64,000 bases of DNA from a candidate division FCPU426 bacterium (GTDB lineage Bacteria > Oederibacteriota > PGYV01 > Palsa-1178): assembly GCA_963840035.1 (NCBI GenBank), contig CAWIXE010000001.1, forward strand, positions 64,001 to 128,000. Direction: 5' to 3'. Position 1 is the stretch's first letter, and each line of letters starts with the position of its first letter. A model generated the notes under the pieces. It had not been told where the DNA came from. It was given only the letters and a program-made list of their open reading frames with translations, and made no database searches. Below are positions 18,906 through 64,000 of this stretch, piece after piece. A program made the translations under genes and the position numbers.

Positions 18906-19141
18906 CTCACCTCGTTATATTAAAAAAGGCCCGCTAAAATCAGCGGGCCTTTTTTAATCCGAATAGCTCACCTCATTATATTAAAAAAGGCCCGCTAAAA
19001 TCAGCGGGCCTTTTTTAATCCGAATAGCTTACCTCGTTATATTAAAAAAGGCCCGCTAAAATCAGCGGGCCTTTTTTAATCCGAATAGCTCACCTCGTTA
19101 TATTAAAAAAGGCCCGCTAAAATCAGCGGGCCTTTTTTAAT
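18906..19141. repeat. Tandem array of four 61-bp units, each a bidirectional intrinsic terminator
   Basis: Units start at 18906, 18967, 19028, 19089; each has ATTAAAAAAGGCCCGCT-AAAATC-AGCGGGCCTTTTTTAAT; two single-base variants. Confidence 0.92.
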
Positions 19142-19365
19142 ATGGGTGCAGGACGATATAAGGGGTTTTGGGAGGGGGTTAGTTAGGGGGAACCTGCACC
19201 CATATTTTATTAGTTCATCTCTGTGTGTTTTTTAAGAACTTTATAGCATGTCTACTAATAATTGATGTAAAAGTGAGGTTTTTGCGTCATAGCTAGGAAG
19301 TGTTTGTTTCCGGGTTTCCATCTTCCTGGTCTGCTCACTTTTTGTCTTAAAACCCGACTGTTTCA
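19100..19365 (-). ncRNA. Candidate structured small RNA
   Basis: Orphan TTGACA at 19395..19400, nested stems, a 14-bp stem with C-rich loop, then a terminator; no long ORF. Confidence 0.4.
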
Positions 19366-42236: not shown

Positions 42237-42620
42237 ATGGCAATGCGCTCACCTAAGGAAATGAAAATGCACGATACCATCATCAGATCGCTGGCCGGAA
42301 TTTATGAATCAAAGAACGCCCAGCAGGTCATGACAAACCTGGAAAAACAGGACGCGGTCATCAAAGGTGTCTCCGTTGACGTGATAGTAAAAAATCCCAT
42401 CACCTACATCTTCAAAGTGGAAACCGACACCTCGGTCACCGAGGGAGAAGCCATAGCCTGGAAAGGCATTTCAGACCAGCTGGGCACATTCTTCCTGCTG
42501 ATCCCGGAGCCGCTGAAAGCGGAAGCAAACAGGATCCTGGCAAAAGTGGGCCTTAAAAACGTAAGGCTGTGCTACTACAAAATAGCGGACAACAAACTGA
42601 AGTTCATAAACCTGCCGTAA
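42237..42620 (+). CDS. Hypothetical protein whose 3' end is reiterated downstream
   Basis: 127-aa ORF, GGAGG RBS, terminator at 42638..42666. Confidence 0.8.
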   Translation: MAMRSPKEMKMHDTIIRSLAGIYESKNAQQVMTNLEKQDAVIKGVSVDVIVKNPITYIFKVETDTSVTEGEAIAWKGISDQLGTFFLLIPEPLKAEANRILAKVGLKNVRLCYYKIADNKLKFINLP

Positions 42621-42865: not shown

Positions 42866-43150
42866 TCATTCGATGACGATAAATCCTGCATGGCTAAATA
42901 TGAATTGTATTTTTAGCCCGGCTTTTCCTCTAATTATGGCGAATTCGCCATAATTAGAATCAGGGTTATTTATACTCTCCCAAATGCCTAAAAACTCCAC
43001 TGTATTCCTGTTCCTTAACCAATCGGATATAAAAAAATCACCTTCTTTGGCTCTTAACATGTCTGTAAGCGATATATAATCCTCATTGCCGGATTTAATA
43101 ATTGATATTTTAACGCCTTTAACCAATATTGTTTTCTTCATTTTCATCAT
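42866..43150 (-). pseudogene. Truncated KilA-N domain protein
   Basis: DYISLTDM..WLRNRNTVEFLGIWE..NP..NYGEF then an early end; consensus TTGACA-N16-TATAAT promoter at 43188..43215. Confidence 0.7.
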
Positions 43151-43432: not shown

Positions 43433-43503
43433 AGGATTGGGATTGCGGTAGGTTTGCTTGTTTCAATGATATTTAAACCTAATCCAACATTAAGCCGCAG
43501 CAA

Positions 43504-43648
43504 GCGGCGGCTCTACAAAAATCGGTGTGTGCGGTGGGTGTTTGAACTGTCTATAGTATGCTTGCTTCAATGCCATGAATAAGCGCAGGCCGGTGGAACG
43601 CAGGCCTGCGACTACTAAATCGTTGCCTTCGGGCCGCCACAAAGGCGG
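43504..43648. repeat. Dispersed ~150-bp REP-containing repeat, copy A
   Basis: Shares GCGGCGGCTCTAC and CGCAGGCCTGCGACTAC blocks with 45344..45492 and 46917..47077. Confidence 0.7.
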
Positions 43649-43650
43649 AC

Positions 43651-43750
43651 CTGTGCTACTACAAGATAGCGGATAACAAACTGAAGTTCATAAACCTCCC
43701 GTAATCAAAACCTAATATACCAAAGGCCGCGTGAAAACGCGGCCTTTTTT
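43651..43750 (+). pseudogene. Displaced 3' end plus terminator of gene 42237..42620 (copy 2)
   Basis: Aligns with 42567..42666; encodes LCYYKIADNKLKFINLP*. Confidence 0.85.
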
Positions 43751-43752
43751 AT

Positions 43753-44874
43753 TTATTCATACTTCATCACTGTTGCTTTTAAACCCAATGCCCCGTCTCC
43801 GAATATCACATATGGCACTGAATTATAGGTATAGAATCCGACGCTTTCAACACCCGAATGCTCAGCAAAATCCGTCCTGCCCACATCAACCCAGTTGTTG
43901 TTGACAAGCTTCATCACCATTACCCTGCGTATGGTTGTAGTCGTATACCTCTGGGATTCGCCGTAACAGTATAATGTGCCGTTGTCATTAAATATGCCCG
44001 CGTCTGTACCGTTGTATGATATGTCGGATGATATGCCTCTGGCCCCCACATACTGCCATGAACCGCCTTCGTATTTCATGACCGTCATCTTTTGGTCCCC
44101 TGATATCATGTCGGGAAAAGCGACATATGGCACTGTCCCGACAAATGTAAGGTCCGTCATATATGCGACATCCGGCGTAAACCCGGCTGCCCCGATATTT
44201 TGCCATGCTCCGGTAACCAATTTGACCAGTGAGCCGTGGTTGCCCTGCGCCATATCCATAAAGTTCACGTAGGGCACACCCGATTCAAAGGCGAGGGAAG
44301 GATTTCTGGCCCCTGTGATATCAGGCCCCACCTGTGTCCATGAACTCCCGTTAAATGTCATTACCCTGGCTATGTTTGTGGTGTTGTCAGCAAACGCTAC
44401 ATACAATATGTTATTGTCCGCACAAAAAGATACCGCACCTATATCGCCTGTGGCAAACCTCGCTGCTCCGGCTGCGCTCCAAGCTGAGCCGCTGTATTTC
44501 ATAACAGTTACACCGGCCGTGGCCTGGCTCATATCACTGAACGCGACATATATCTCTCCCGAACATTTCAGCAGCTTGGGGAACCTTCCCACGGCAAAAC
44601 CCGATGGACCCAACGCAGCCCATGATGTCCCGTTAAACTCCATTACTGTTACGTTATCGGGAGTCGGCCTCGGAGATGGAAACGAGGAAAAAGCAGCGTA
44701 TATCTGGCCGTTATCAATAAGAAGCGCCGGCGACACATATGTATCCGTGGGTGAAAACCCGGCCGTTCCTACGAGCTTCCAGTCCACAGTGGATAACGGC
44801 GCTGTCGGAATCTTTTTTGAACAAGCGCATAATAAGACCAGCATAACAGCAAATACTAATATTATTTTTTTCAT
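43753..44874 (-). CDS. Lipoprotein with beta-propeller-like repeats
   Basis: Lipobox LCAC; repeated VMK(Y/F)xGxxWxxVG and PYVAFxD units. Confidence 0.85.
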   Translation of the reverse strand: MKKIILVFAVMLVLLCACSKKIPTAPLSTVDWKLVGTAGFSPTDTYVSPALLIDNGQIYAAFSSFPSPRPTPDNVTVMEFNGTSWAALGPSGFAVGRFPKLLKCSGEIYVAFSDMSQATAGVTVMKYSGSAWSAAGAARFATGDIGAVSFCADNNILYVAFADNTTNIARVMTFNGSSWTQVGPDITGARNPSLAFESGVPYVNFMDMAQGNHGSLVKLVTGAWQNIGAAGFTPDVAYMTDLTFVGTVPYVAFPDMISGDQKMTVMKYEGGSWQYVGARGISSDISYNGTDAGIFNDNGTLYCYGESQRYTTTTIRRVMVMKLVNNNWVDVGRTDFAEHSGVESVGFYTYNSVPYVIFGDGALGLKATVMKYE

Positions 44875-44958: not shown

Positions 44959-45208
44959 AAACAGACACCTCAGTCACCGAGGGCAAAGCCATAGCCTGGA
45001 AGTAAGGCATCTCAGACCAGCTCGGCGCATTCTTCCTGCTGGTACCGGAGCCGCTGAAGGCTGAGGCAAACAGGATCCTGACAAAAGTTGGGCTTAAGAA
45101 CGTCATGCTGTGCTGCTACAAGATAGCGGATAACAAACTGAAGTTCATAAATATCCCGTAATCAAAACCTAAAATACCAAAGGCCGCGTGATAATGCGGC
45201 CTTTTTTT
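44959..45208 (+). pseudogene. Displaced 3' half plus terminator of gene 42237..42620 (copy 3)
   Basis: Aligns with 42421..42666, mostly synonymous changes, 3-nt insertion creating an in-frame TAA. Confidence 0.87.
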
Positions 45209-45343
45209 ATTCCTTCTGCCTTTGAATTCGTAGGGGCGATTCACGAATCGCCCGCCTTTGAATTTGCTTTTGTATAAATACGGTAGTCGCACCCTCTACG
45301 TACCATCGGGGTGCGTACACGGTTGCGTAGGCTTTCTATATTT

Positions 45344-45492
45344 TGCTTGCTTCAATACCTTGAATAGGCGCAGGCTGTTCGATACGTATATGGCATGAGA
45401 ATATTATAGGACTCATGACATATACCGGTGGAACGCAGGCCTGCGACTACTAAATCACTGTCTTCGGGCCGACACACAGGTCGGCCCCTACA
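45344..45492. repeat. Dispersed REP-containing repeat, copy B
   Basis: Near-identical to 46970..47077; ends in GGGCCGAC..GTCGGCCCCTAC hairpin. Confidence 0.7.
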
Positions 45493-46811: not shown

Positions 46812-46916
46812 AATGCCTCCCTTTAGATCTCGAGCATATTATATACCTTTTAATCTGTTATTTCCATAAAGGTTTACAGCCGTAAACTTCGACTGATATG
46901 ATTTTTTTATTTGAGC

Positions 46917-47077
46917 GCGGCGGCTCTACCAAAAGGTGTGTGCGGCGGGTGTTTGAACTGTCAATAGTTTGGCTTCCTTCAATACCTTGAATAGGCGCAG
47001 GCCGTTCGATACGTATATGGCATGAGAATATTATAGGACTCATGACATCTACCGGTGGAGCGCAGGCCTGCGACTAC
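46917..47077. repeat. Dispersed REP-containing repeat, copy C
   Basis: Aligns with copies A and B. Confidence 0.7.
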
Positions 47078-47141
47078 AAAAAAACAAAGCCGCTGCCCCA
47101 ACAGTGTCTTAATTGTAAATCGTAAATTGTAAATAGTAAAT

Positions 47142-50444: not shown

Positions 50445-50660
50445 TTTATTGTTTACAAAAGTGTGTAATCTATATGACGCACTTTTATTCCCTCTCCCCT
50501 TGGGAGAGGGGTAGGGGTGAGGGGAACAAAACAAGGATTAATAACCCCTCATCCTGACCTTCTCTCCCCCGCAAGGGGGGACTAAATTGAGCCGAGGGAG
50601 AAGAAAATAATTTCATTTATTTAAAGTATATTTTAAATCTACACAATTAATGACAGTATC
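50445..50660. mobile_element. MITE 4 with degenerate IS256-like ends
   Basis: TTTATTGTTTACAAAAGTGTGTAA / TACACAATTAATGACAGTATC; 9-bp TSD ATGCTGCCG / ATACTGCCG; internal CCCTCTCCC..GGGAGAGGG palindromes. Confidence 0.7.
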
Positions 50661-50779
50661 ATACTGCCGGCCTTCCTTTTAAACCGGATATATTCCACCC
50701 GCTTTGAAAATATGCTTTCTGATTAGCCAGCCTGTCTTTAAAAAAACAGATAAGGCCAGGGACCGCGATAGTTTAATGT

Positions 50780-51067
50780 TTATCCAAATGTTTGAGGCGG
50801 CCCCTGGCTTATGTTCCGGCCTATAGCGCCATTTATAATTTCTAGATTGGTTTTTTGCGATAAAAGAAGTTGTTCCATTTCGTGGATTATTGACATAATC
50901 GCGTCGGTTTTTTCGCTGTTTTTCTTTTCCTTTATCATGCCCCGGAAAAATTCCGACATATTCTCGCCGTTTTTCCTGGACATCCTTTCAACATCTTTTT
51001 TTTCTTTTTCACTGACGCGTATAAGTATCTTACAGCTTTTTAATCCCCCGGCGTTCTTTTCCCTCAT
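50780..51067 (-). CDS. Ribbon-helix-helix / MobC-like small protein
   Basis: ILIRVSEKEK..NMSEFFR pattern. Confidence 0.6.
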   Translation of the reverse strand: MREKNAGGLKSCKILIRVSEKEKKDVERMSRKNGENMSEFFRGMIKEKKNSEKTDAIMSIIHEMEQLLLSQKTNLEIINGAIGRNISQGPPQTFG

Positions 51068-51235
51068 ATATCACCCCACTGATATATTGATGTTTTAAAT
51101 CGGCGGCTTTATTGCTATCATGTCTACTTTATATCACATGTTCTGCTGTATGTCAAGTATATAATATCCGCTATGATGTATGTATTTGACGGCGGTACAA
51201 ATAGTATATTTATTCTGTAAAAAAGGAGGCGGTAG

Positions 51236-51577
51236 ATGGACATATATTCTTCATTGGGAAAAAAGATACGTGAAGCCAGAAAAAATTCCGGCATTACGCA
51301 GGAAATGCTGGCCGAGGCAGCCGGCATATCGCCTCATTTTCTGAGCACAATTGAAACCGGAAAAGAAAAAGCTTCGCTTGATACGATCAATAAAATATCG
51401 GGCGCGCTTGAAGTTCCGTTGTGGCAGCTTTTTAAGTTTGAAAACAGCATAATAAAAAAACACGGCAGGAAATACAAGCTGGATATGATGTTTGATAATA
51501 CGGGAAAAAACAAACAGGAATTCCTGGAAGAAACAATCAAGGATATCTATTCAAACCTGAGAAAATATATTAAGTAA
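51236..51577 (+). CDS. XRE family HTH regulator
   Basis: LGKKIREAR..ITQEMLAE..LSTIETG; AGGAGG RBS. Confidence 0.9.
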   Translation: MDIYSSLGKKIREARKNSGITQEMLAEAAGISPHFLSTIETGKEKASLDTINKISGALEVPLWQLFKFENSIIKKHGRKYKLDMMFDNTGKNKQEFLEETIKDIYSNLRKYIK

Positions 51578-51691
51578 GCCGTCCTCTGTTGTATTCATGC
51601 GCACCCAGAAGTACTCACGCACACTCCCGGAGTTTGCCCCTGAAAAAGCTTTGTCCCATTGATTTATAATGGCAACTATCCGCGGCAGCCG

Positions 51692-52363
51692 CTATTTTGT
51701 AAAATAGAGTGTTTTCTGATTCATTACCACAAGCGCGCTACCGACGTTTGCCCCTGAAAAGGCGTTTGTAAACTGATTGATAATGGTCGCCTGCACCATG
51801 TATGATCCCGCGCCTTTTGAAAGTATCCCTGTTCCCGTAATGTTAGCCGGGGAATTGGCGTTCCCTGACCCTGACGGCGGTATTGATACCATGGAACTAT
51901 CCGGCGCCATTGCCGAAATTATATCGCTGTTGCCTTCCACAGTCCATGTAACCAGCGATCCGTCAGCCGCTATGGTGATGTTTCCCGGCGCCACGGATGA
52001 TGCCGTATATGTTTTTCCGCCAATTGTTATATCCACGGTGTATGTCTGGTTAAACTGGTAATATGTGGCCACATCCGCTCCGAGAAGCTGCAGTCCATAT
52101 ATGCCTGCCGCATTTTCAGGCACTGTGACTATACCGGTGGGTCCGGTAACTGTTACCTCCGCGCCGGATATCCCTGCCATTGTGCCTGAATCAATAAGCA
52201 TCACATCATAAACTGTCTGCCCGAGTGAAGCCGAACTTTCCTGGCGCGAAATCTGGGCTGATATGACGAGCGTACTCGCGGGAATTGTCGGCGACCAGGT
52301 GGTTTTTTTATTGCATCCCGCCATTACCAAAGCAATCAGTATTATTACGGATATTTTTCTCAT
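51692..52363 (-). CDS. Hypothetical lipoprotein
   Basis: Lipobox MAGC; beta-rich. Confidence 0.8.
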   Translation of the reverse strand: MRKISVIILIALVMAGCNKKTTWSPTIPASTLVISAQISRQESSASLGQTVYDVMLIDSGTMAGISGAEVTVTGPTGIVTVPENAAGIYGLQLLGADVATYYQFNQTYTVDITIGGKTYTASSVAPGNITIAADGSLVTWTVEGNSDIISAMAPDSSMVSIPPSGSGNANSPANITGTGILSKGAGSYMVQATIINQFTNAFSGANVGSALVVMNQKTLYFTK

Positions 52364-52396
52364 TATTGCCCCCCTTAGGACGCACTCAGTGCGTCC

Positions 52397-52852
52397 CTAC
52401 AAAACCTTAAAGTAAATCAGAATCCACATCAGCGCCAGGCCCTGGAAGCCTGAGATTGCGTCGTCCAGCATTATGCCGTTGCCGCCGCGGAATGACTGTG
52501 CCTGATAAGCAGGCCACGGTTTTATGATATCAAGTATCCTTGCCACAAAGAAACCCACTATGAGCCTTTTCCATGTGAAGGGTATGAGGAACATGGTGAT
52601 TAAAAATCCCACCACCTCGTCTATGACCACTTTTGACGGGTCCTCGTCGTCAAAAATTACAGCGGCGTAATTGGACGCCCAGACCCCTATAAAATAAAGA
52701 CCGATGGTAATTGACGCGTAAAGCCACGGGTTCATGTCACGGAATATAAAGTAGTAAAAAGGAAGGAAACAGAATGTGGCAAAGGTGCCGGAGCCTTTGG
52801 GGAAGTAGCCTGTGTAGAAAAACGTGGAGATTATGATGTAAACATTGCGCAT
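52397..52852 (-). CDS. pgpA: Phosphatidylglycerophosphatase A
   Basis: GYFPKGSGT, DPSKVVIDEVVG, DIIKPWP, GIMLDD. Confidence 0.93.
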   Translation of the reverse strand: MRNVYIIISTFFYTGYFPKGSGTFATFCFLPFYYFIFRDMNPWLYASITIGLYFIGVWASNYAAVIFDDEDPSKVVIDEVVGFLITMFLIPFTWKRLIVGFFVARILDIIKPWPAYQAQSFRGGNGIMLDDAISGFQGLALMWILIYFKVL

Positions 52853-53004
52853 GTAAACCGTCCTTCATATAATTACTAATTTATAATTACTAATTACTAA
52901 TAAAGGTGGCGCTTCGCGCGCACTATTATAATATTGCAGGGGCGTCAGCCCGCAGCAATAGACGATAATTTGTAATTAGTAATTATAAATTAGTAATTGT
53001 TTTT

Positions 53005-53655
53005 TTAGATCTCTTTATCGAAAATCCTCTTGTTCTTAAAAAAGTACTCCAGCCCCGATATGAGCGATATGGACGCGGCGCAGAACATCAGCCAGTAAGG
53101 GGCGTAGTATACGAACTGCACCATAAAATCCCCGGCGTTGCCGAACTTCATTAATATGACTTCCCATTTTTGCTTTTCATTGAAGTATTCTATGGTATCC
53201 TGAAGGACTTTAAGCAGGAGTACTGTTGTAATGGCGGTCATCTCGACAACCGTCTTTATCTTCCCGAGCATGGAGGCCATTATTATCTTGCCTTCCTGGG
53301 CAGCCATGATGCGGATGCCGTTTACCATGAATTCCCTTCCTATTATTATCACCACCATCCAGGCAGGCACGGTCCCCAGCTGGACAAAACATAACAGCGT
53401 GGAAATAACCAGAATCTTATCGGCCAGCGGGTCCATGACTTTTCCGAAATCGCTGATAATGTTCAGTTTCCTCGCTATGTATCCGTCAAGCCAGTCGGAT
53501 ATGGCAGCTATGGCGAAAAGTATTAGTGCGATGTAATTAAAGACTATGTTGGCGGCAAGCAGCGCCGGTATGTATATGATTATTATGAGGAGCCTGAACA
53601 TCGTTATCCTGTTGGGCAGTTTTACGAGCCAGACAGGCAGTGACTTTTTTGCCAT
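53005..53655 (-). CDS. pgsA: CDP-DAG-glycerol-3-phosphate 3-phosphatidyltransferase
   Basis: LPNRITMFR, SDWLDGYIAR..FGKVMDPLADK. Confidence 0.94.
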   Translation of the reverse strand: MAKKSLPVWLVKLPNRITMFRLLIIIIYIPALLAANIVFNYIALILFAIAAISDWLDGYIARKLNIISDFGKVMDPLADKILVISTLLCFVQLGTVPAWMVVIIIGREFMVNGIRIMAAQEGKIIMASMLGKIKTVVEMTAITTVLLLKVLQDTIEYFNEKQKWEVILMKFGNAGDFMVQFVYYAPYWLMFCAASISLISGLEYFFKNKRIFDKEI

Positions 53656-54942
53656 TTAACATTCCCCTATAAGGTCAAATTTGTTAAAACCGGTTATCTT
53701 AACGTCATAAAATTCACCGGTCTTAAGATTCTTTTTGCTTTTAACAAGTATGTAATTATCTATGTCCGGCGCGTTATCCCCGGTCCTTCCGAGAAAGAGG
53801 TTTTTTGAGCGCCTGCCTATAACGAGCGTTTTTTTGGTTTGCCCTTTTTCCTTACTGTTATTATAATAGCAAACATCCGCCGAGGCAAGGGCTAAACTTT
53901 CCTGCCTGCGCTTTATAACGGCAAAGGCCGTCTTTGGCTTAATGCCTGCAGCATAAGTACCCTGCTCGTCAGAATAAGGGAATATGCCGGATTTTTCGAC
54001 ATAACCGGCGCTGATAAAGTTTAAGAGTTCCTCAAATTCAGCGTTTGTCTCGCCAGGATACCCCGTGATAAAAGAGGTGCGCAGCGACATTCCCGGCGCT
54101 TGGGCCTTTACATAGCTGATAATATCGGTTATGTCCATCTTTCCGTATCCCCTTTTCATGGATTTGAGCACCCTGTCGCTTACGTGCTGGAAAGGTATGT
54201 CCATGTAACGGCATATCCTTTTATCGTTTTTCATGGCTTTTACTATGTCCTTAATAACCGCAAAATCCGGATAAAGGTAAAGCAGCCTCAGCCAGAAATC
54301 CTTTTTTACTTTTTTGGTTATGGCCGCCAGCAGTTTTCCAAGCACTGGTTTGCCGTAATTATCGCGGCCGTAGTATGTGAGGTCCTGGCTTATGAGGTTT
54401 ACTTCCTTCACGCCGCTTTTTACAAGCGTGTTAATTTCATCCGCGATGTCCTCTATCTTCCTCGACCTGTAGCGCCCTTTTATGGAAGGAATGGTGCAGA
54501 AGGAACAGCGGTGGTTGCATCCGTCGGATATTTTTACGTAGGCTGAGTACGGGTTAAGCAGGGTCACATGTTCTTTCCCCTTGTAAACGCATGGCGCTGA
54601 ATCAAGGTATAGACCGCCTTTTTCCACGGCCTTCCTTATGTTTGACATGTCGTTTACGCCGACCCACGCGTGGACGTTTTTAAAGCGTTTTTTCAGGTTT
54701 TTTATATCCTTGGTTACAAAGCAGCCTGCGACAATTACTTTCGCGTTTTTATTTTCAAGCATGTCGGAAATAGCGCCGGTGGATTCATCCCTGGAAGCCT
54801 TTAAAAATCCGCAGGTATTAATAAGGATATAATCGGCTTCAGCCGGGTTTGATGTAAGGTGAAAGTCGCTAAGGTAGGAAATCATAACCTCGGTGTCGAC
54901 GGTGTTCTTGGGGCAGCCGAGGTTTATTACGCCGAGTTTCAT
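53656..54942 (-). CDS. rimO: Ribosomal protein S12 methylthiotransferase
   Basis: LGCPKNTVD, NTCGF, GCNHRCSFCTIP, APDID; context with rodZ and pgsA. Confidence 0.93.
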   Translation of the reverse strand: MKLGVINLGCPKNTVDTEVMISYLSDFHLTSNPAEADYILINTCGFLKASRDESTGAISDMLENKNAKVIVAGCFVTKDIKNLKKRFKNVHAWVGVNDMSNIRKAVEKGGLYLDSAPCVYKGKEHVTLLNPYSAYVKISDGCNHRCSFCTIPSIKGRYRSRKIEDIADEINTLVKSGVKEVNLISQDLTYYGRDNYGKPVLGKLLAAITKKVKKDFWLRLLYLYPDFAVIKDIVKAMKNDKRICRYMDIPFQHVSDRVLKSMKRGYGKMDITDIISYVKAQAPGMSLRTSFITGYPGETNAEFEELLNFISAGYVEKSGIFPYSDEQGTYAAGIKPKTAFAVIKRRQESLALASADVCYYNNSKEKGQTKKTLVIGRRSKNLFLGRTGDNAPDIDNYILVKSKKNLKTGEFYDVKITGFNKFDLIGEC

Positions 54943-55029
54943 TGGATTAGTCTCATGACCCAAGACCCAGGACCCAGATTACCTGGAAGGTTCCAGCTTG
55001 GGTCATGGGTCTTGGGTTTTGTGACATGT

Positions 55030-55530
55030 TTACCTATAGTTCGTAAACTGCGTGTCTATGCCGAAGTCGTGCGCCCTTATTGCCTGCATTGCTTCCTGAA
55101 GGTCGTCTTTTTTCGGGGCCGATACCCTTACAACGTCTTTTTGTATGGATGCCTGTATTTTTTTGAGCCCCAGGTCTTTTATAAATTTCACTATTTCCTT
55201 GGCCTTTTCCTGGGGTATGCCTTCCTGTATCTTCATCTTCATTATCATCTTGTTCATGCCGGACTGGTAAGGCGCCTCGCTTGTTAAAGCTTTCATGGGC
55301 ACGCCCCTTTTAATAAACTTGCCCCTTAATACTTCCTCTGAAGCCTTCACCTTATAATCATCAGTTGTGGTTATGGTTATGGTGCGCTCTTCCTGGTTTA
55401 ACTCTATGGTGGTGTTTGTGTCCCTGAAATCATACCTGTTTGTTATTTCCCTGGTAGCCTGGTCTATGCCGTTGACCACTTCCTGCATTTCTATCTTGGA
55501 TACAATGTCAAATGAGCTGTCTGATGCCAT
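55030..55530 (-). CDS. yajQ: YajQ family nucleotide-binding protein
   Basis: SFDIVS, RYDF, SIQ..VRV..KKDDLQ, FTNYR. Confidence 0.94.
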   Translation of the reverse strand: MASDSSFDIVSKIEMQEVVNGIDQATREITNRYDFRDTNTTIELNQEERTITITTTDDYKVKASEEVLRGKFIKRGVPMKALTSEAPYQSGMNKMIMKMKIQEGIPQEKAKEIVKFIKDLGLKKIQASIQKDVVRVSAPKKDDLQEAMQAIRAHDFGIDTQFTNYR

Positions 55531-55628
55531 ATATAACCTCCAAACAATTTTAAATTTTCAATTTTATATTTTCAATTAAGATCTAAAACACCAATTGAAA
55601 ATTGAAAATTCTAAATTGAAAATTGTAT

Positions 55629-56486
55629 TTACTGCGCTGCCGGCGTTACCGTCACCGCTGCCGGCGCCGTTCCTGCCGGGGTGTCTTCCGCCATGGGCTT
55701 CGGATTTTCCCTTTTAAAGCCCTGCGCCTTGTCTATGTACCAGTTCTTGCCTGTCTCAAAAACAAGACCGTTTATGACTTCTCCCGGCTCTCCGATGACC
55801 CCTATGGGATCACTGTTCTGGGTGAACTCGACGCCGCCCGCGTTGCCGACTAAGAATACTATCCTGTTAATGTCCTTCCATTTCCTCTCTTCGCCTTTTT
55901 TCATGAGGAAATCCTCTTCGCCGTTATCATGCCTTGCCTTCATCCACACGTCGTCTTTTGCCTTTACCGTTATCTTCAGGCCTGTAGGCGCCGTGACTGT
56001 GGCTACGTATACGTTATTATTTGTTTCCTGGACCCCGCCTTTTCCCCTGAAAGCGAAAACAATAAAGAGCACGAGAAATATGGCCGCCACTACAGATACT
56101 GCAATTATAATGTTGTTTTTTGTCATCATGGTAAGTTCAAGCTTTGTGCCTTTTGCCGCTTCCAGCTCCCTCGGTTCTGTTTCCTTTATGATGTCGCCCA
56201 GGGACATATGATTGTGGTGCTTTTCCGTTTTCTTCGCGGCTTCCTGTACCTCAGGCGAGAAATCATAAAGCCTCATGACCTCTTTTAGGTCCACCTTTAA
56301 ATGCTTCGCGTAAGTCTTTAAGAAGAACCTCATGTAAACAGGCTTCTCAAATATTACCAGATTTTCCTCTTCGAGGGCCTTTAAGTATGAAGGGTCCATC
56401 TTGAGGATCTTATGCAGTTCAACGTGCGTTAAATCCTTCGCTTCCCTTGCCTTTTTTAATATCTCTCCGTAGCCTTTTGCCGCCAT
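55629..56486 (-). CDS. rodZ: RodZ-like HTH/TM/DUF4115 protein
   Basis: N-terminal HTH (YLKALEE..FLKTYA), TM, VWM..GNAGGV. Confidence 0.85.
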   Translation of the reverse strand: MAAKGYGEILKKAREAKDLTHVELHKILKMDPSYLKALEEENLVIFEKPVYMRFFLKTYAKHLKVDLKEVMRLYDFSPEVQEAAKKTEKHHNHMSLGDIIKETEPRELEAAKGTKLELTMMTKNNIIIAVSVVAAIFLVLFIVFAFRGKGGVQETNNNVYVATVTAPTGLKITVKAKDDVWMKARHDNGEEDFLMKKGEERKWKDINRIVFLVGNAGGVEFTQNSDPIGVIGEPGEVINGLVFETGKNWYIDKAQGFKRENPKPMAEDTPAGTAPAAVTVTPAAQ

Positions 56487-56512
56487 TGTCTTCTCCTTTT
56501 ACAATTCCTGTT

Positions 56513-57454
56513 TTATTTTATCGCGCCTTCGAGTTCAGCCGCGTCAATCACTTCCACACCTTCAGGTACGGTGAATTTAAAATTGGACTCCGCCAGTTCC
56601 TTATTGCCCGCGATTTCTGATTCCTTGTAATTAACCGTGTCAAGGAACTCTATCTCGGTTATTGTGCCCTGTGTCTTCATGGACATGTAAAAAGGCACCA
56701 GGTCTTTTTTTGTGACCTTTATTATTATCTCGTCGTAGCCGATGGCGTTCTTATCGCGCGGCGACATGGTTAAAGTGTATGAAGTCTCATCCTCGCCAAG
56801 GACGGTGTCGCTGTTTTTCACATAGTGGCTGATGGAACTTGAAAAATCAGAGTAAAACTGCGTGCCGTTGTTTGACCCTTTTACCGACTGCTTCATGACC
56901 TGGGAAAGCGCCGGGGTGTATATCCAGATCGTCTTTCCGTCGGAAATTATATCCTGCTCGCTCGGCTCGGTATAATGAACCCTGAATTTATCTTTTTTCT
57001 TTATAATGGCCTCGCCCTTAATGAACTGAGGCGCGCCTCCGCCGGCGAAGGTCTTCATGGAAATCTTTGTTTTGGAAGCCGCCACATCAGCCTGGCCTTT
57101 CCTTATCTTTTCCACCAGCTCGGAAACCTTATCCGGGACCGGTGTTGCCTTTGCTTCATTCACGGCAGCTGCCTTCGGCGTCTTCTTTTTGACCGGAGTT
57201 ACCGCGGAAGTTGCTGCGGGCGTTATTTCCTGTTTAACTTCCTTTACAGCTTCTGTCGGGACTGCCGTGGCCGTGGTCCCCGTGGCGGTCGCGGCCGCTG
57301 TCGGAGCGCTGTCCGCGGTCTTTGTGTTTATGACCTCATCCGAAGCAATGGTATTGTTTGCCGTATTTGTTACTTTTCCGAAAAGACAGCTGCATGAAAA
57401 TGATACAAATATGAGTGATGATATGATTAGCAGTATTTTAAACTTTTTGTTCAT
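56513..57454 (-). CDS. lolA: LolA family lipoprotein carrier with long Ala/Thr-rich N-terminal extension
   Basis: KFRVHYTEPSEQDIISDGKTIWIYTP..QV; FKFTVPEGVEVID; follows the ftsK 3' remnant. Confidence 0.82.
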   Translation of the reverse strand: MNKKFKILLIISSLIFVSFSCSCLFGKVTNTANNTIASDEVINTKTADSAPTAAATATGTTATAVPTEAVKEVKQEITPAATSAVTPVKKKTPKAAAVNEAKATPVPDKVSELVEKIRKGQADVAASKTKISMKTFAGGGAPQFIKGEAIIKKKDKFRVHYTEPSEQDIISDGKTIWIYTPALSQVMKQSVKGSNNGTQFYSDFSSSISHYVKNSDTVLGEDETSYTLTMSPRDKNAIGYDEIIIKVTKKDLVPFYMSMKTQGTITEIEFLDTVNYKESEIAGNKELAESNFKFTVPEGVEVIDAAELEGAIK

Positions 57455-57659
57455 AACCCTCTCCTTAATATATATACATGCGTGCGCCCAAAATGGCACG
57501 GGTTTATATTTTAATTAGAATTTGGGAGAAATGCAAGGGAAAAAAGCAGGAAATAGCTACAAAAACAAGCCCAGAGCCCATAGCTCAAAGCTCAAGGAAG
57601 TCAAAAGCAACAGCAAAAATATACCGGTTTTACTTGTGCTATGGGCTTTGGGCTTGTAC

Positions 57660-57809
57660 TTACTCGCCCTTCCATTCCCTGGGTTTATTCCCGTCAGCCG
57701 ACGTTATCAGCCCCTTTTCCTCTATCATGTCTATGACCCTGGCCGCCCTTGAGTAGCCTATGCCGAGCTTCCGCTGGAGGAAGGAGGTGGATATCTTGCC
57801 CTTTTCGCG
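57660..57809 (-). pseudogene. Orphan duplicate of the ftsK 3' end (gamma domain, 49 codons plus stop)
   Basis: Colinear with 63421..63570; by hand count about 20 substitutions, one non-synonymous. Confidence 0.9.
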
Positions 57810-57922
57810 AACCAGGTATGCAATAAATTAGAACATATTGAAGTTTATGCCGTCGGTTTTAATTCAAATTTAAATTGAATGTTTTACAATGAAATCAGCC
57901 TTGGAATTTGACTTTCTCCTTG

Positions 57923-60900
57923 TTATCTAATGATCATGAATACTTTTGTTGCCTTATAAATAACTCTGCCATTTGCTTTCAGGATCACCTTTGCAAGATA
58001 GCTCCCGTTTGCCATGCTTTTTGTGTCCAAATTACACGCACCGCTGGCATTGATAGTGTGTGTGAATCGCCGGATCAGTCTTAAGTTTACTGTGTAAATG
58101 TCTATCTCTGCCGTTTGCGCTGATAATGAATTCTTTATGGAAATAGAAAGCATATCTCCCCGGGAAGGAACTGGATAAATAACCACGCTGTCAGACTGGT
58201 ATTCAGACAATGACGTGGTTTTTGTTGCGGTTGGTGAAACAATTGGGGTTGACTGTTTTGTGACAGTCTGTGAAGGTGTACAAGTGGCTGTGCGTGTTTT
58301 AGACAGTGTCGCCGTGGGAGTTAATGATATAGTTCCTGACGCTGTAACAGTGATGGTCGCGGTTTTCGTGATAGTCAACGTCTTAGTAAATGTGATAGAC
58401 AAACTTGCGGTTATCGTTTCTGTAAAAGTACAGGTACCAGTTGATGTGCCTGTCTGGATGTTTGTAGCAGTAACTGTAGGCGACTCCGTTTCGGCCACAG
58501 TAGAGGATGCCGTTATCGTGAATGTTTGTGTTAGTGTTTCGGCAATTGTACAGGTTGGTGACATTGTCGGGGTACATGTCATTGTCATTGTTATGGTATT
58601 TGTTCCGGTCCATATCATTGTAGCCGATGAAGTTGCAGAAATTGAACTTGTAGGACTTGACGTTAAAGTCGTCGTTAATGTTTGTGTGCAAGTTTCTGTA
58701 GGAACTGAACATGTAACCGAAAAGCGGGATACCTGGAAATAGGAGTTTGAAAGTAAGGTAACGCAGGAACCGATAACTAATCTGCCCGCGCTATCAAGCA
58801 TCCCTGCCACTGAAACGGGGTTCTGCGTGCCATAGTCATCGTAAACACCTGTCCCGTTGAAGTTAAAGTCGGCATTTCCATCGCTGTTGAACCTATTTAT
58901 AAAATAATGGGTATTATTGCTTGAAGCGCCGTCCATGCCAAAAGCTGTTATCTGCGTTCCTGGTCCAGCGAAAATATTTGAAAAATAAAAATTATCCCCC
59001 GGCGTGGTTCCATAGGGACGGTTGTTGAATACATTATACCCACACCCATTGAATGAATAGTCAAGATTACCGTTATCAAGGAACCTCCAGACACAGGCAT
59101 ACCCGGATGACTGCGCCCCGGAAAGACCTGCGCTTCCCCCAACAAGAACTCTGCCTTCCATATCAACGCCCACTGAATATCCCAGGCTGCCCGTGACACC
59201 AGCTGTGTTTTCAAATGTAACGTAACCTTTTCCGTTAAATGAACCATCAATGGTCCCGTTATGGTTAAACCTCCAGACAGCCATAGAATTACCCTTTTTC
59301 CCGGTGACCAAGATCCTTCCGTTATTGTCTATTGAAGCTCCGTAAGCTGTCCCTATAGTCGGCATACCCTGTATGTTCGGCAGAATGAAACCACACCCAT
59401 TAAACGATGTGTCCAGCGTACCGTTCTGATTGAGCCTCCAGATAGTTACTACCGGGGCCCCACCATAAGTTGTGCTGTTTCCTGCAACTACTATTTTCCC
59501 GCCGCTGTCAAGGATTACCGCAACGGCATAATCGTCGCCACCAACTCCAGCGGTGTTCTTTATTACAAAATAACCCGTTCCGTTAAATGACGTGTCAAGT
59601 AAGCCTGTTGTGCCATACCTCCAAACCGCCATGCTATAATTAGAATATGAATTTGCGCTTTTTCCTGCAGCAATAACCCTCCCGGAACTATCAGTAGTAA
59701 CTGCTTTTGCTTCATCATACCAGTTCCCACCCCCGGCGTTATTATGGGTCACATACCCGGTACCGTTAAATGAAGTGTCAGGGCTGCCGTCAGGCTTTAT
59801 TTTCAAAATAATCATATCCATATTATTATAGGAAATACCCGCAGTAATAATATTTCCTGACATATCCGCCGCGCATGCCAGGAGCTTGCTGCTATTGTTA
59901 ATCATATATTCTTCCCTGCCGCCTGCGCCAAACGACCCGTCAGGATGTACGCAGCCTGTTGTAGGTGAAACTGCCGGCGTCTGAGTATTTGTTAGTGTTG
60001 GGGAATGTGTATAGGTAGTCGTCATTGTCCTGGTATCATCATCGGTTGCCGTCATTGTAAAAGTTGCCGAGATAGTCGGAGTCTGAGTGATTGACGGGGT
60101 AGGCTGGATGGTAAATGTTTCAGTCCTCGTTAACGTTATAGTAGGGGTACAGGTGCTTGTGTACCAGACAGAAAGACATGTAAATCTGGCGGCATTTATT
60201 CCTGAATTAGGGTCGTTCCATCCCATAAAAACTTCACCTGCTCCGGAAATGGCAAGCGATGACTCCCCATAAAGGCACGAATCACCTGCGCATAAGTTCA
60301 CATAATCTTTGCTGATACCGTGAATATCAGTCCATGTACTGCCATTAAGTTTTAAGTATTCAAGCCCGCCGCTGTCATTCCACGATATATGACATGTGCC
60401 GCCGCCATCAATATCAAGTTTTAATCCGGCGCATTCTCCCTGCACCGGATAAATTGCCGCTGATTCCATACCTGTTCCGTCAGAATCAACCCAATTGCTG
60501 CCGTTCCATCGGATGAAATAAATGGACTTCACCAAATGGCTGAGGTCCCACCCCTGCCACGCAATGCATGCGTTGCCGGTATTATCCAGGGCAAGTACCG
60601 GTTTTGAAGAAGAATTTGATATTACAGCAGAGATAAATTCGGATTCCTTGCCTGTCCCGTCAGCATCGACCCATTCACTGCCATTCCATTTTAAATATGA
60701 TATACCGGAAACAGCGTCGCACCAAACAACATGCGGCAGTCCTGTTCCATCACTCCGGATATACGGTTGGGACGAATCTGCTGAAATATCCGATATTATT
60801 TGGCTGCCGGACGTTATGCCATCCGCATTAGTCCAGGAATTACCATTCCACCTTATTATTGAAATAACATGGCTGGACTGCATGTCATCCCATACTATCC

Positions 60901-63307
60901 ACGGGAAATTATCAATATCAAGTGAAAATGCCACATTTTCAACAGCATCATAAATTGTGGCAGGGACTTCCATATCATTGATATCAATCCCGGTACAATC
61001 AACCCATCCGGCATCTTTCCCACGAAGATATTTTATACTCGGATAAAGATTATTTCCTGCCCAAACCACAGCCGGTTCACCTGTCGTTAGGTATTCAAGA
61101 CTGAACCCGCTCGAAAAGTCCTGCCCATATTCATAAATCACACTATTGCCTGAAGAGCCCCCAAAGCTGACCCAATTACTGCCATTCCAACCAAGATAAT
61201 TCAGAACACCTTTTTTATCCGGCCAAAGAAGGCCAGGATTTCCGTCGGGTCCGGACTTAATCTGAGGCGTATTAACAAATAAATTACTTTGCACCGCCAG
61301 TGTGCCGGATAAAGAAGTTCCGTGCATTCCCTCCCAACATGCTTCAAGCGGATTTGAAGGACAAATATCCGGGCATAAAACCATATATGCATCCATGGCA
61401 AAATAGCCTGATAAAGTGGCAGGCATTGACGTTGGAAAAACCCAATATGTGGACCCCATCCATAATCTGGAAGAATCCCCTGTGTTTCCCAAAACGATGT
61501 TCTTATATTCTAAAGCAAGCCAATAATTGCCTTTTGCAAGATGGGTGTCAGGAAACCTTATACTATTCCATCCAACAGATGCGGTTGTGCTGACTGAAAC
61601 AGCTATAAGGCTATCAGGTTGGTTGTTGTTATCACTGTAAATCCCGGCCTTGATAAAACCGGATCCTGAAATACCGCGTACCTCTATATCCGAAGTCGCG
61701 CTGTCCAGAGGCACAATAACCTTTTGGAGGGACATGTATGTAGACAACGAATACGGAGTGACAACGGGCGCCATTACACCCGCGACTTTCATACAAACGC
61801 AAGGCAGCGGAGTAGACGTACGGGTTGTTGTGGCTGTATACGATGTGGTTCTGGTGGGTGTCACCGTAAATGTCGGGGATATAGTAACTGTATTTGTTAT
61901 GGTCGGAGAGACCGACCAAGTCGGACTGATAGTCGGAGTGGCTGTGCTTGTTCCAGGTGGGTCTATCCATTTGACATAATGAATCCCGTCGTACGACTCC
62001 CATGCTATATGCGGGTTACCAAAGCTGTCAAGATCAAGCGAAGGGCCCCAGTTGTCGCACTGTAAAATAGAAATATTTGAGCCTTCAGTGCCCGTGCCGT
62101 CGGCATCGACCCAGGTGCCATTTTTAAGCCACATATAATAAATAGCATAATTACCATCCGGATTCGCACACCAGGCAATGTGTGGGTTGCCGTAACTATC
62201 AGCCTTGATTGCAATCCTATCAATACCTAACTGCGGTAAATACAAAATCTGCATTGATTCCTGGCCGGTTCCATCACCATCAACCCATTCACTGCCATTC
62301 CATTTCAGGAAGTTCATTCTCCTGGGATACGGTAAAACGTTTGAAATCTCGGTCCATAATACCATCGGCCTGTCCTGGGAATCAAAGGCAAGTTTACCCT
62401 GATCCGGACCATAAACTGCAGATTGTATAATTATTTTACCGGTTACTGCTGCAGAAATTGTTGCTCCTGACGCGTCAACCCATGCGCTCCCGCTCCATTT
62501 ATAATAATATAGATTCCCCATATACATGAATACCAGCCCGGGTTTTCCCTGTGAGTCAGCTACCATGTCCAGATTGAAAGCATTTGCGGCCTTAATCTGG
62601 CTGATTCCAGAGCCGGTGATATCCGTCCATGACGTACCGTTCCATTTTATATAATCCAGATCGAAATTCTCAAAATATGCTATATTTGGCCTGCCTCCCG
62701 AGTCAAGGAACATGGGGCACAGTGCGACATTTGACCATCCTGACGCACTGATGGTATTAGTCAGCCGTGCGGATTCTATTCCTGACCCATCAACATCAAC
62801 CCATGTTCCTCCGTCCCATTTCATAAAAAAAAGTTCAAAGTTGTATTGGTTGTCGATTTGCTGGGTATATGTTACATTTGGATGTCCATTCGCGTCAAAT
62901 TTAATGCTACCCGCCTCAATATAATAAGTGCTGTCCATTAATTTATAACCGGTCGTTCCCCCATTGATATCCACCCAGGATGCGCCATCCCATTTTTTAT
63001 AATACATCGAGTACGTGGGGCTCGTAGAACGTGAGAACATGATATTTGCATTATCTGCCTGGTCAAGTTCCAACACGGGAACAAAATCCGGGTTCATCAC
63101 AGTCTGGTCAACAAGTTCCTGGCTGCGGAATGAACCGTATGCGTCCACCCATATGGCGTTTAATCCGGGTATAAATGTGAGGATTAGAAAAAATTGGAAA
63201 ATAACTTTGATGATTCCTCGAGTCAGGTAAGAAGCAGGCACCCAAAGCCTCCCTTTGCATATCGTCATGTTCCCCATATTAGAATATAATAACACCAAAA
63301 ACTGCAA
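57923..63307 (-). CDS. Very large secreted protein: two W-x-G-x-x-W-x-D repeat propellers, delta-60 propeller, Thr-rich stalks, T9SS type A-like C-terminal domain
   Basis: KWNGSEWVDADGTG-like repeats, LDTSFNGTG repeats, C-terminal IYPVP..IDIYTVN..ANGSY..KVFMIIR; start uncertain. Confidence 0.85.
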   Translation of the reverse strand: MQFLVLLYSNMGNMTICKGRLWVPASYLTRGIIKVIFQFFLILTFIPGLNAIWVDAYGSFRSQELVDQTVMNPDFVPVLELDQADNANIMFSRSTSPTYSMYYKKWDGASWVDINGGTTGYKLMDSTYYIEAGSIKFDANGHPNVTYTQQIDNQYNFELFFMKWDGGTWVDVDGSGIESARLTNTISASGWSNVALCPMFLDSGGRPNIAYFENFDLDYIKWNGTSWTDITGSGISQIKAANAFNLDMVADSQGKPGLVFMYMGNLYYYKWSGSAWVDASGATISAAVTGKIIIQSAVYGPDQGKLAFDSQDRPMVLWTEISNVLPYPRRMNFLKWNGSEWVDGDGTGQESMQILYLPQLGIDRIAIKADSYGNPHIAWCANPDGNYAIYYMWLKNGTWVDADGTGTEGSNISILQCDNWGPSLDLDSFGNPHIAWESYDGIHYVKWIDPPGTSTATPTISPTWSVSPTITNTVTISPTFTVTPTRTTSYTATTTRTSTPLPCVCMKVAGVMAPVVTPYSLSTYMSLQKVIVPLDSATSDIEVRGISGSGFIKAGIYSDNNNQPDSLIAVSVSTTASVGWNSIRFPDTHLAKGNYWLALEYKNIVLGNTGDSSRLWMGSTYWVFPTSMPATLSGYFAMDAYMVLCPDICPSNPLEACWEGMHGTSLSGTLAVQSNLFVNTPQIKSGPDGNPGLLWPDKKGVLNYLGWNGSNWVSFGGSSGNSVIYEYGQDFSSGFSLEYLTTGEPAVVWAGNNLYPSIKYLRGKDAGWVDCTGIDINDMEVPATIYDAVENVAFSLDIDNFPWIVWDDMQSSHVISIIRWNGNSWTNADGITSGSQIISDISADSSQPYIRSDGTGLPHVVWCDAVSGISYLKWNGSEWVDADGTGKESEFISAVISNSSSKPVLALDNTGNACIAWQGWDLSHLVKSIYFIRWNGSNWVDSDGTGMESAAIYPVQGECAGLKLDIDGGGTCHISWNDSGGLEYLKLNGSTWTDIHGISKDYVNLCAGDSCLYGESSLAISGAGEVFMGWNDPNSGINAARFTCLSVWYTSTCTPTITLTRTETFTIQPTPSITQTPTISATFTMTATDDDTRTMTTTYTHSPTLTNTQTPAVSPTTGCVHPDGSFGAGGREEYMINNSSKLLACAADMSGNIITAGISYNNMDMIILKIKPDGSPDTSFNGTGYVTHNNAGGGNWYDEAKAVTTDSSGRVIAAGKSANSYSNYSMAVWRYGTTGLLDTSFNGTGYFVIKNTAGVGGDDYAVAVILDSGGKIVVAGNSTTYGGAPVVTIWRLNQNGTLDTSFNGCGFILPNIQGMPTIGTAYGASIDNNGRILVTGKKGNSMAVWRFNHNGTIDGSFNGKGYVTFENTAGVTGSLGYSVGVDMEGRVLVGGSAGLSGAQSSGYACVWRFLDNGNLDYSFNGCGYNVFNNRPYGTTPGDNFYFSNIFAGPGTQITAFGMDGASSNNTHYFINRFNSDGNADFNFNGTGVYDDYGTQNPVSVAGMLDSAGRLVIGSCVTLLSNSYFQVSRFSVTCSVPTETCTQTLTTTLTSSPTSSISATSSATMIWTGTNTITMTMTCTPTMSPTCTIAETLTQTFTITASSTVAETESPTVTATNIQTGTSTGTCTFTETITASLSITFTKTLTITKTATITVTASGTISLTPTATLSKTRTATCTPSQTVTKQSTPIVSPTATKTTSLSEYQSDSVVIYPVPSRGDMLSISIKNSLSAQTAEIDIYTVNLRLIRRFTHTINASGACNLDTKSMANGSYLAKVILKANGRVIYKATKVFMIIR

Positions 63308-63420
63308 AAATCAATTGCTTGGTGGCAATATTACTTGGTGGCAATAAATGTGCCTGTAAAAAAAAAGGCGGCCTTTCAGCCGCCTATATATGTTTTTGGA
63401 ACCTTAGACCACGAGCGATT

Positions 63421-63999
63421 CTACTCGCCTTTCCACTCCCTCGGTTTATTCCCGTCCGCGGAGGTTATAAGCCCTTTTTCTTCCATCATATCTATGACCC
63501 TGGCAGCCCTTGAGTAGCCTATGCCTAACTTCCTCTGGAGGAATGAAGTGGATATCTTTCCTTTTTCGCGCGCCAGATCCAGCGCCCTCTTATACATATC
63601 CGGGTCCATGTCGTCATCGTCGGAAAAACCCGAACCCGTGGGCATTTCATCGTCTTTAATGTCAAACTCATCCGAGTAGACTGCCTTGCGCTGTTTTTTG
63701 ATAAATGAAACTATTTTAGGTATCTCATCCCTGACAAAAGCGGCCTGGCCCCTGGTGGGCTTTACCATGTTCGCGGGATTATATAGCATATCGCCTTTTC
63801 CCAGCAGCGCCTCGGCGCCTTTGGTGTCCATGATTGTGCGCGAGTCTATCTGTGACTTTACCTTGAAAGCTATCCTTGAAGGGAAGTTCGCCTTGATTAC
63901 GCCGGTGATGACATCCACCGAGGGCCTCTGAGTGGCTATGATGATGTGTATGCCGACCGCGCGGGCAAGCTGCGCGAGCCTCTGCAGCGATTCTTCCAC
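63421..63999 (-). CDS. ftsK: DNA translocase FtsK, 3' part (runs off the window)
   Basis: ARAVGIH..ATQRPSVDVITG, DSRTI..GAEALLGKGDML, SFLQRKLGIGYSRAAR. Confidence 0.96.
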   Translation of the reverse strand: MEESLQRLAQLARAVGIHIIIATQRPSVDVITGVIKANFPSRIAFKVKSQIDSRTIMDTKGAEALLGKGDMLYNPANMVKPTRGQAAFVRDEIPKIVSFIKKQRKAVYSDEFDIKDDEMPTGSGFSDDDDMDPDMYKRALDLAREKGKISTSFLQRKLGIGYSRAARVIDMMEEKGLITSADGNKPREWKGE

Positions 64000-64000
64000 G

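Follow-up and report, generated by a model that had tools for sequence, protein, structure and literature searches.

The 64,000-nt window analysed here (G000:C1:64001-128000; the source genome G000 comprises three contigs and 3.46 Mb, and is listed as 98% complete with 0.5% contamination) contains two diverged copies of the 3′ end of the cell-division gene ftsK, separated by a single long gene, the cargo, for a predicted surface protein. We consider it fairly probable (about 0.65) that this arrangement arose by homology-facilitated illegitimate recombination (HFIR) with 3′-end displacement: donor DNA would have been anchored by homology on one side and joined illegitimately on the other, so displacing the resident ftsK end. 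The mechanism is already known, and the scar is a well-formed natural example of it. The reading is supported by the allelic pattern of divergence between the two ends, the foreign composition of the cargo, the adjacency of ftsK and lolA in relatives, the lack of a local recombinase, and further scars with varied break points in the same genome.

All features of the locus lie on the reverse strand. The intact ftsK gene (785 aa, G000:C1:127421-129778) runs past the end of the window; its 3′ end, at 63421-63576, terminates in TAG and probably represents the incoming allele. The orphan copy, at 57660-57815, comprises the last 51 codons of the gamma domain and a TAA stop, lacks a start codon of its own, and contains no frameshift or internal stop. 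We infer that it is the displaced resident allele because it is continuous with lolA, the putative ancestral downstream neighbour of ftsK. A repeat search of the window aligned 57661-57815 with 63422-63576 over 155 nt, without gaps and at 86% identity; the differences numbered 2, 1 and 18 at the first, second and third codon positions. Over the last 150 nt (57660-57809) 20 nucleotides and one amino acid (M to I) were changed, in exact agreement with a hand count (about 20 substitutions, one M to I) in the initial annotation, and over the 156-nt span there were 22 differences and two changes (A to V, M to I). When ftsK was compared with the genome by blastn, the orphan was the only other coding copy (E = 2e-47, far past chance).

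The initial annotation had described one long gene and no recombinase between the two copies, and both points were confirmed, by gene calls and by recombinase profile matches, respectively. Homology to ftsK was found on the upstream side of the insert only. On the far side, a 107-nt spacer (57816-57922) runs from the cargo stop to the putative illegitimate joint at the orphan; it occurs nowhere else in the genome and meets ftsK in the middle of the gene. Similarity of the orphan to ftsK opens at CTGG, and the identical runs counted from its 5′ edge measure 4, 8, 2 and 11 nt, the longest anywhere in the two copies being 20 nt. Within the spacer, 22-46 nt upstream of the orphan edge, the ftsK diagonal showed a weak 15/24 match, equalled by 0.7% of other diagonals. 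Possible sources of this patch are a patchy extension of pairing at the joint, a relic of older date, or chance.

The pattern of substitution indicates that both ends diverged within working ftsK genes. Placing 22 random substitutions on the gene end in 20,000 neutral trials gave a mean of 15.1 amino-acid changes and a minimum of 7, compared with the 2 observed. Since there are 2 changes where neutral decay would give about 15, both ends were once functional ftsK alleles, as had been proposed from the initial annotation, and the orphan is not a decayed recent duplicate. The final 153 nt agree at 86% between the two ends. For comparison, three species of the sister genus g4 reach 84-88% among themselves over this length, and 78-81% with either end, which is the between-genus level. 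The 14% synonymous divergence points to a donor of another species in the same genus, the most likely source of the second allele because the 86% identity falls within the g4 interspecies range.

An old local duplication, in which two full ftsK copies diverged under selection before the cargo was inserted and most of the second copy deleted, would predict synonymous bias too, and the 15/24 patch might then be decayed ftsK. However, a search with the last 54 aa of FtsK, which found a match in 92 of 99 phylum genomes, revealed a second allelic ftsK end in none of the 98 genomes other than G000. The orphan carries no frameshift or stop, so heavy decay directly beside it is unlikely, and the same story would have to recur at the four other scarred genes described below. 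We regard this explanation as quite unlikely.

The junction between ftsK and lolA was then compared across relatives. The two genes were directly adjacent in five of the 23 other genomes of the order (G004, G009, G013, G016 and G019). In three they were apart on one contig, by 6.2 kb (G005), 18.5 kb (G002) and 22 kb (G007), with unrelated genes between them; in 12 they were on different contigs, and in the remaining three one gene was unmatched. The metagenome locus L050, which had the closest ftsK end found (85%), also had lolA directly adjacent. The inserted genes of G002, G003, G005 and G007 gave no tblastn match to the cargo at the ftsK-lolA site. Because the inserts in relatives do not match the cargo, the evidence from gene content identifies the junction as a variable-cargo site in the family. 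A survey of such junctions for variable cargo had been proposed with the initial annotation, and three relatives do hold unrelated cargo of 6-22 kb there.

Displaced ftsK ends, by comparison, were confined to the window among the loci and genomes searched. The cargos of G002, G005 and G007 start after the ftsK stop, without a repeat or orphan end, and among 39 loci examined upstream of lolA the only orphan was that of the window. Self-blastn and tblastn of 97 relatives' loci revealed no clear ftsK orphan, with short matches in L043 (70 nt, mostly past the stop) and L058 (37 nt). A second match in G002 (L037, G002:C79:4340-4501) was a 57% FtsK gamma-like domain in a 139-aa frame of a prophage-like region. 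The 22-kb insert of G007 (L224 / L033, G007:C105:15000-37000) contains consecutive lipoprotein genes together with an 857-aa protein; by eye, this protein and its small membrane-protein neighbours have the appearance of a conjugation-type (VirB4-like) module.

The codon use of the cargo is foreign to the genome. Among 1264 genes of at least 300 aa, its codon score lay at the 2.5th percentile and its GC content at third codon positions (GC3, 0.40) at the 2.1st, while ftsK and lolA were mid-range. It was also the lowest on both measures among 51 Thr-rich, tail-bearing proteins. Because its codon use is foreign, the cargo was probably recent in the donor lineage too. Its best homologues share at most 42% identity, and that locally. 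Related repeat domains occur in 15 of the 24 genomes of the order, with local identities of about 27-57%, and a 1787-aa frame in G001 sits in a different neighbourhood.

From these observations a sequence of events can be proposed. A congeneric donor would already have carried the foreign gene behind its ftsK terminator, at the variable-cargo junction of the family. A fragment of donor DNA would have paired with the recipient through ftsK, by RecA, with a crossover somewhere upstream, so that the downstream part of ftsK was replaced in frame and the gene stayed whole. The far end of the fragment, which lacks homology and lies 107 nt beyond the cargo stop, would then have joined the recipient ftsK 155 nt before its stop, probably at a short microhomology, and the remaining 155 nt, hairpin and lolA would have been pushed downstream. 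These steps correspond to HFIR, in which homologous exchange at one end is accompanied at the other by an illegitimate joint, usually at 3-10 bp of microhomology (PMC3240628). Displacement of a 3′ end has been proposed as an outcome of the same process (PMC5361080). The old ftsK end would lie behind the cargo because the joint falls within the anchor gene of the recipient. The genome contains recA, comEC and dprA, as identified by sequence.

Several points weigh against this account. HFIR is 10^2 to 10^6 times rarer than homologous recombination, and its experimental products average about 1 kb, usually with a host deletion of like length (PMC3240628), whereas about 5.6 kb was gained here. The bases of the old allele upstream of the joint have been lost, so any microhomology is indistinguishable from the orphan itself. 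Near the boundary, the two copies share an 8-bp identical run, CGCGAAAA, that a tyrosine integrase could use as its overlap. Competence genes are common, comEC being present in 10 of 14 control genomes, and so are no proof of transformation. A phylogeny of the two 3′ ends, another check proposed initially, could be run on 153 nt, but did not separate gene end, orphan and L050, so that resident and incoming alleles cannot be told apart by this means. Among the compared genomes, genus g1 holds G000 alone and offers no empty-site strain. The upstream crossover, which was likewise to be located, was sought by sliding identity and GC3 against eight relatives, all at least 15% diverged; the comparison was run but yielded no signal and no usable break. 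The best metagenome loci were 91-92% identical at the amino-acid level, and the FtsK 90% cluster has one member.

To find scars of the same kind, 2922 genes were called with a hexamer model made for this analysis, and gene ends were sought as repeats in non-coding DNA. Clear 3′ orphans, lying downstream on the same strand and reaching the stop, were found at four genes: ftsK, a conserved 127-aa gene, the riboflavin synthase gene and a 290-aa membrane protein gene. A 5′ orphan of queH brings the total of scarred genes to five. In one scan there were eight downstream same-strand non-coding matches, of which four are among the listed scars, one is doubtful, and three are heptamer repeats; the riboflavin synthase scar emerged from other scans. 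The doubtful case is an ORF6N-like gene (48 nt, 79%, differences 4/1/5 by codon position) and is left outside the five. Weak candidates arising from intergenic heptamer repeats, signal-peptide starts, paralogues and mis-called genes were dropped.

The 127-aa gene (42237-42620, forward strand) is the second scarred site in the window. It belongs to no Pfam or NCBIfam family and is matched in 23 of the 24 genomes of the order; in 20 of 22 relatives' loci it sits no more than 1.5 kb from the end of mfd, usually convergent with it. Two orphan ends follow it on the same strand. The first (43651-43753) holds 54 coding nt and the terminator at 94% identity, with three third-position changes; the second (44959-45254) holds about 200 coding nt, the terminator and a hairpin resembling repetitive extragenic palindromic (REP) sequences, at about 86%, and a 3-nt insertion in it makes a stop codon. 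No orphan of this gene was found in the 22 relatives' loci. A REP-like unit from the mfd-side flank is present in triplicate (43490-43645, 45332-45480 and 46915-47107), once per cargo unit. This repetition suggests that stacking at the junction of the 127-aa gene with mfd took place from both sides. A KilA-N fragment lies at 42866-43150.

The remaining scars lie outside the window. The riboflavin synthase orphan (C1:1078633) spans 90 nt at 82% identity, with differences 1/1/14 by codon position, and 98 bp without a gene separate the copies; no such orphan end was found in the other genomes, G000 being the only one of 24 to carry it. The orphan of the 290-aa membrane protein gene (C1:228407) spans 97 nt at 74%, with differences 6/2/17. 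That of queH, upstream of the gene (C1:305708), spans 45 nt, with differences 2/1/6, and again the 90 bp between the copies contain no gene. Directly after the orphan of the 290-aa gene is an AT-rich block (G000:C1:221000-225500), possibly a defence islet, with what by eye is an ATP-dependent nuclease-like gene. The 5′ edges of the orphans read CTG(T)G in three cases (ftsK, the first orphan of the 127-aa gene, riboflavin synthase) and AAAC in three others (the second orphan of the 127-aa gene, the 290-aa gene, the ORF6N-like gene). All five clear scarred genes are on C1, at 106-128, 228, 305 and 1079 kb, a contig with 36% of the genome, and none is on C2 or C3.

The scar mechanism is not specific to surface proteins. 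The initial annotation had reported the same signature at 42-47 kb as at ftsK, and the two orphan ends of the 127-aa gene bear this out. Its further proposal of a general route for acquiring surface proteins was overstated: the scars at riboflavin synthase and queH enclose no gene, and the relatives with large cargo between ftsK and lolA carry no orphan end.

A host enzyme could make such joints non-random. A Y1/HUH nuclease resembling REP-associated tyrosine transposases (RAYT), for example, might act near REP hairpins to cut core genes near their ends, swap these ends between congeneric species and drag in surface-protein genes. Hints in this direction are the five scarred genes in one contig, the eight matches to Y1 transposases in the genome, and the REP-like hairpins, some of them near scars. 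A further hint is that, across the order, ftsK, the 127-aa gene and the riboflavin synthase gene are scarred in this genome alone. The CTG(T)G and AAAC edges, three of each among six, may be another. No REP was found at the ftsK joint. We regard this as an improbable extension of HFIR.

A relic of a site-specific element would resemble the ftsK scar closely. A phage or island integrated in the 3′ end of ftsK would have supplied the new end, and later lost its integrase and everything but the cargo. The geometry is identical to that of icd, e14 and icdC in E. coli (PMC13626634), and integrative and conjugative elements (ICEs) with tyrosine integrases target the ends of housekeeping genes, including ftsK, though at its 5′ end (PMC4701971). 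The 8-bp run near the 5′ edge of the orphan is compatible with such an event. However, one gene and two short spacers fill the interval, leaving no integrase or remnant of one, and the repeats of those ICEs are 12-54 bp long (PMC4701971). No match to PF00589, PF07508 or PF01797 was found within 100 kb of the ftsK site. PF00589 matched two XerC/D-sized genes more than 440 kb away, at C1:572 kb and C1:708 kb, and, in a 70%-GC foreign block of C3, a split gene; the one serine recombinase, at C1:582 kb, was about 450 kb from the site, and the Y1 transposase matches were scattered, the nearest at C1:7 kb. No dif-like site was found near ftsK, the best match to the dif pattern being on C2.

The distribution of scars also counts against an element. 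The cargos at the same junction in relatives lack an orphan end, and a second allelic ftsK end is absent from the other 98 phylum genomes searched. The two orphans of the 127-aa gene start 54 and about 200 nt ahead of its stop, so that the break points are not fixed, and the scars at the five genes differ in edge sequence, with no long common core. An attachment (att) site is argued against because two of the scars have only about 90 bp between the copies and one gene has two break points: a single att site would yield neither the two start points in the 127-aa gene nor scars enclosing 90-98 bp. For the ftsK site we therefore rank site-specific integration below HFIR, and judge it unlikely.

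A circular intermediate is a further candidate. A circle consisting of the 155-nt ftsK end and the cargo could have been integrated by RecA inside the repeat, leaving both copies mosaic, as in the model for displacement of rhs tips. Circular intermediates have been proposed for displaced rhs tips (PMC2935791), and in E. coli linear DNA is known to undergo circularisation and then a single crossover (PMC3240628). The homology available to a circle at ftsK, however, is just 155 nt. A tract of this length at 86% identity, with a longest identical run of 20 nt, is a poor substrate for RecA. The model accounts better for how such a structure spreads once formed than for how it first arose, and we consider it doubtful as an account of this locus.

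The locus could also be an assembly chimera, with two co-occurring species joined at the ftsK repeat. Foreign DNA is present in the assembly, where C2 1670000-1707679 and C3:1-21000 have 63-72% GC compared with 47% overall; these stretches, whose genes have a foreign look, are probably contaminant or chimeric sequence attached to the ends of contigs. In one DNA run, possibly from the source sample, six pieces of 151-156 nt matched 50500-64000 with no differences, three of them in the cargo, and none bridged either junction. However, the joint between spacer and orphan is non-homologous, and a chimera formed by overlap would not make one. The GC content is even (44-48%) across 55-64 kb. In the short-read data of Logan, a protein identical to the cargo and a copy of lolA were each found on a contig of 8379 nt, which exceeds the 6765 nt that the two span together. 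This would imply that an independent assembly, perhaps of the same sample, runs across cargo, orphan and lolA; the junction of ftsK with the cargo is without a supporting Logan contig. A chimera thus appears very improbable.

The cargo is predicted to be an exported multi-propeller surface protein. The gene (57923-63277) encodes 1784 aa from the ATG at 63277; the open reading frame opens at a TTG at 63307 (1794 aa), and the database gene call starts at 63268. Residues ~40-440 (61958-63160) form BNR_4-like WxGxxWxD repeats, a predicted beta-propeller. A second WxGxxWxD domain, at residues ~650-1035 (60173-61330), has no Pfam match alone but matched the same paralogue as the first. Residues ~1105-1525 (58703-59965) form a delta-60 / DUF5122 repeat domain that exceeds the NCBIfam cut-off. 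The linkers are Thr-rich. At the C-terminus (57926-58210) is a sorting domain like those of type A cargo of the type IX secretion system (T9SS): Por_Secre_tail (PF18962) scored 31.8 bits against a cut-off of 27 when the last 95 aa were scanned alone, and was absent in a scan of the whole protein. By eye, a hydrophobic stretch lies at about residues 20-40, the start codon being uncertain.

An alignment-based structure model of the first repeat domain (predicted local distance difference test, pLDDT, 78; predicted template modelling score, pTM, 0.85; a single-sequence fold reached only pLDDT 36) resembled solved beta-propellers. The best solved matches were the Photorhabdus PLL/PHL lectins, at 9-12% identity. 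An ESM Atlas search of the cargo gave BNR_4 leads only, all below 0.9. Glycan binding is possibly indicated by the model, but is only a lead, because propellers of many functions score alike.

The cargo probably has its own promoter, because two elements stand ahead of its ATG: a terminator-like hairpin behind ftsK, and a sigma-70-like match. The hairpin, of the intrinsic type (63366-63385), lies 3′ of the intact ftsK stop and has similar copies elsewhere in the genome. The promoter candidate (63286-63314; TTGATT-17-TATTAT with a TG extension) lies just upstream of the ATG and is a consensus match only; two matches to the pattern were found where 0.9 would be expected.

Beyond the orphan stop, a multi-copy intergenic hairpin (57560-57659) extends towards the lolA-family gene (56513-57454; Pfam LolA), which encodes 313 aa from an ATG, or 328 aa from a GTG at 57499; the orphan lies about 200 nt upstream of it. 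The genes that follow are lolA, rodZ, a DUF520 (yajQ) gene and a radical-SAM/TRAM (rimO-type) gene. Elsewhere in the window, tandem 61-nt repeats occur at 18906-19202, each with a terminator-like palindrome.

The scar suggests that a 5.4-kb foreign gene entered the chromosome with a housekeeping cell-division gene as its anchor, and without mobile-element machinery. Orphan ends of core genes may allow transfer between species in uncultured lineages to be traced by a simple scan. They are also a hazard for annotation, as they mimic att repeats or misassemblies. A literature search that missed most subscription papers found no description of scars at the 3′ end of ftsK and no survey of such scars at housekeeping genes.

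Comparison with known systems places both the cargo and the scar. The cargo shares Por_Secre_tail, delta-60 repeats (TIGR02608 / DUF5122) and Thr-rich linkers with T9SS type A cargo bearing delta-60 and BNR_4 repeats. It differs in that the host, judging by its nearest named records, is not a member of the Bacteroidota, export is predicted from the tail domain, and the homologues are at most 42% identical and local. As in icd/e14/icdC of E. coli (PMC13626634), an incoming allelic 3′ end completes a housekeeping gene and the other end is left as a C-terminal pseudogene past the insert. However, e14 is a 15-kb prophage with SOS-induced, site-specific excision, whereas neither phage genes nor an integrase are present in the ftsK interval, and the scars vary in their break points.

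In the effector-immunity arrays of Vibrio's type VI secretion system (T6SS; PMC5361080, PMC9711863), and in rhs C-terminal displacement (PMC2935791), an incoming 3′ module likewise shifts the resident one downstream as an orphan. Repeated events stack orphans in these arrays, as at 42-47 kb in the window. Unlike in the arrays, a housekeeping gene for cell division acts as the anchor here, what arrives is a nearly identical allele and not a new toxin tip, and no function is evident for the orphan. Relative to HFIR as described in S. pneumoniae, A. baylyi and P. stutzeri (PMC3240628), the ftsK event is deduced from a single genome, the insert exceeds the average of about 1 kb, and the joint lies within the anchor gene, whose old end thereby survives as a diverged direct repeat. 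With HFIR the scar shares one homologous anchor, one non-homologous joint, and the gain of foreign DNA without a recombinase.

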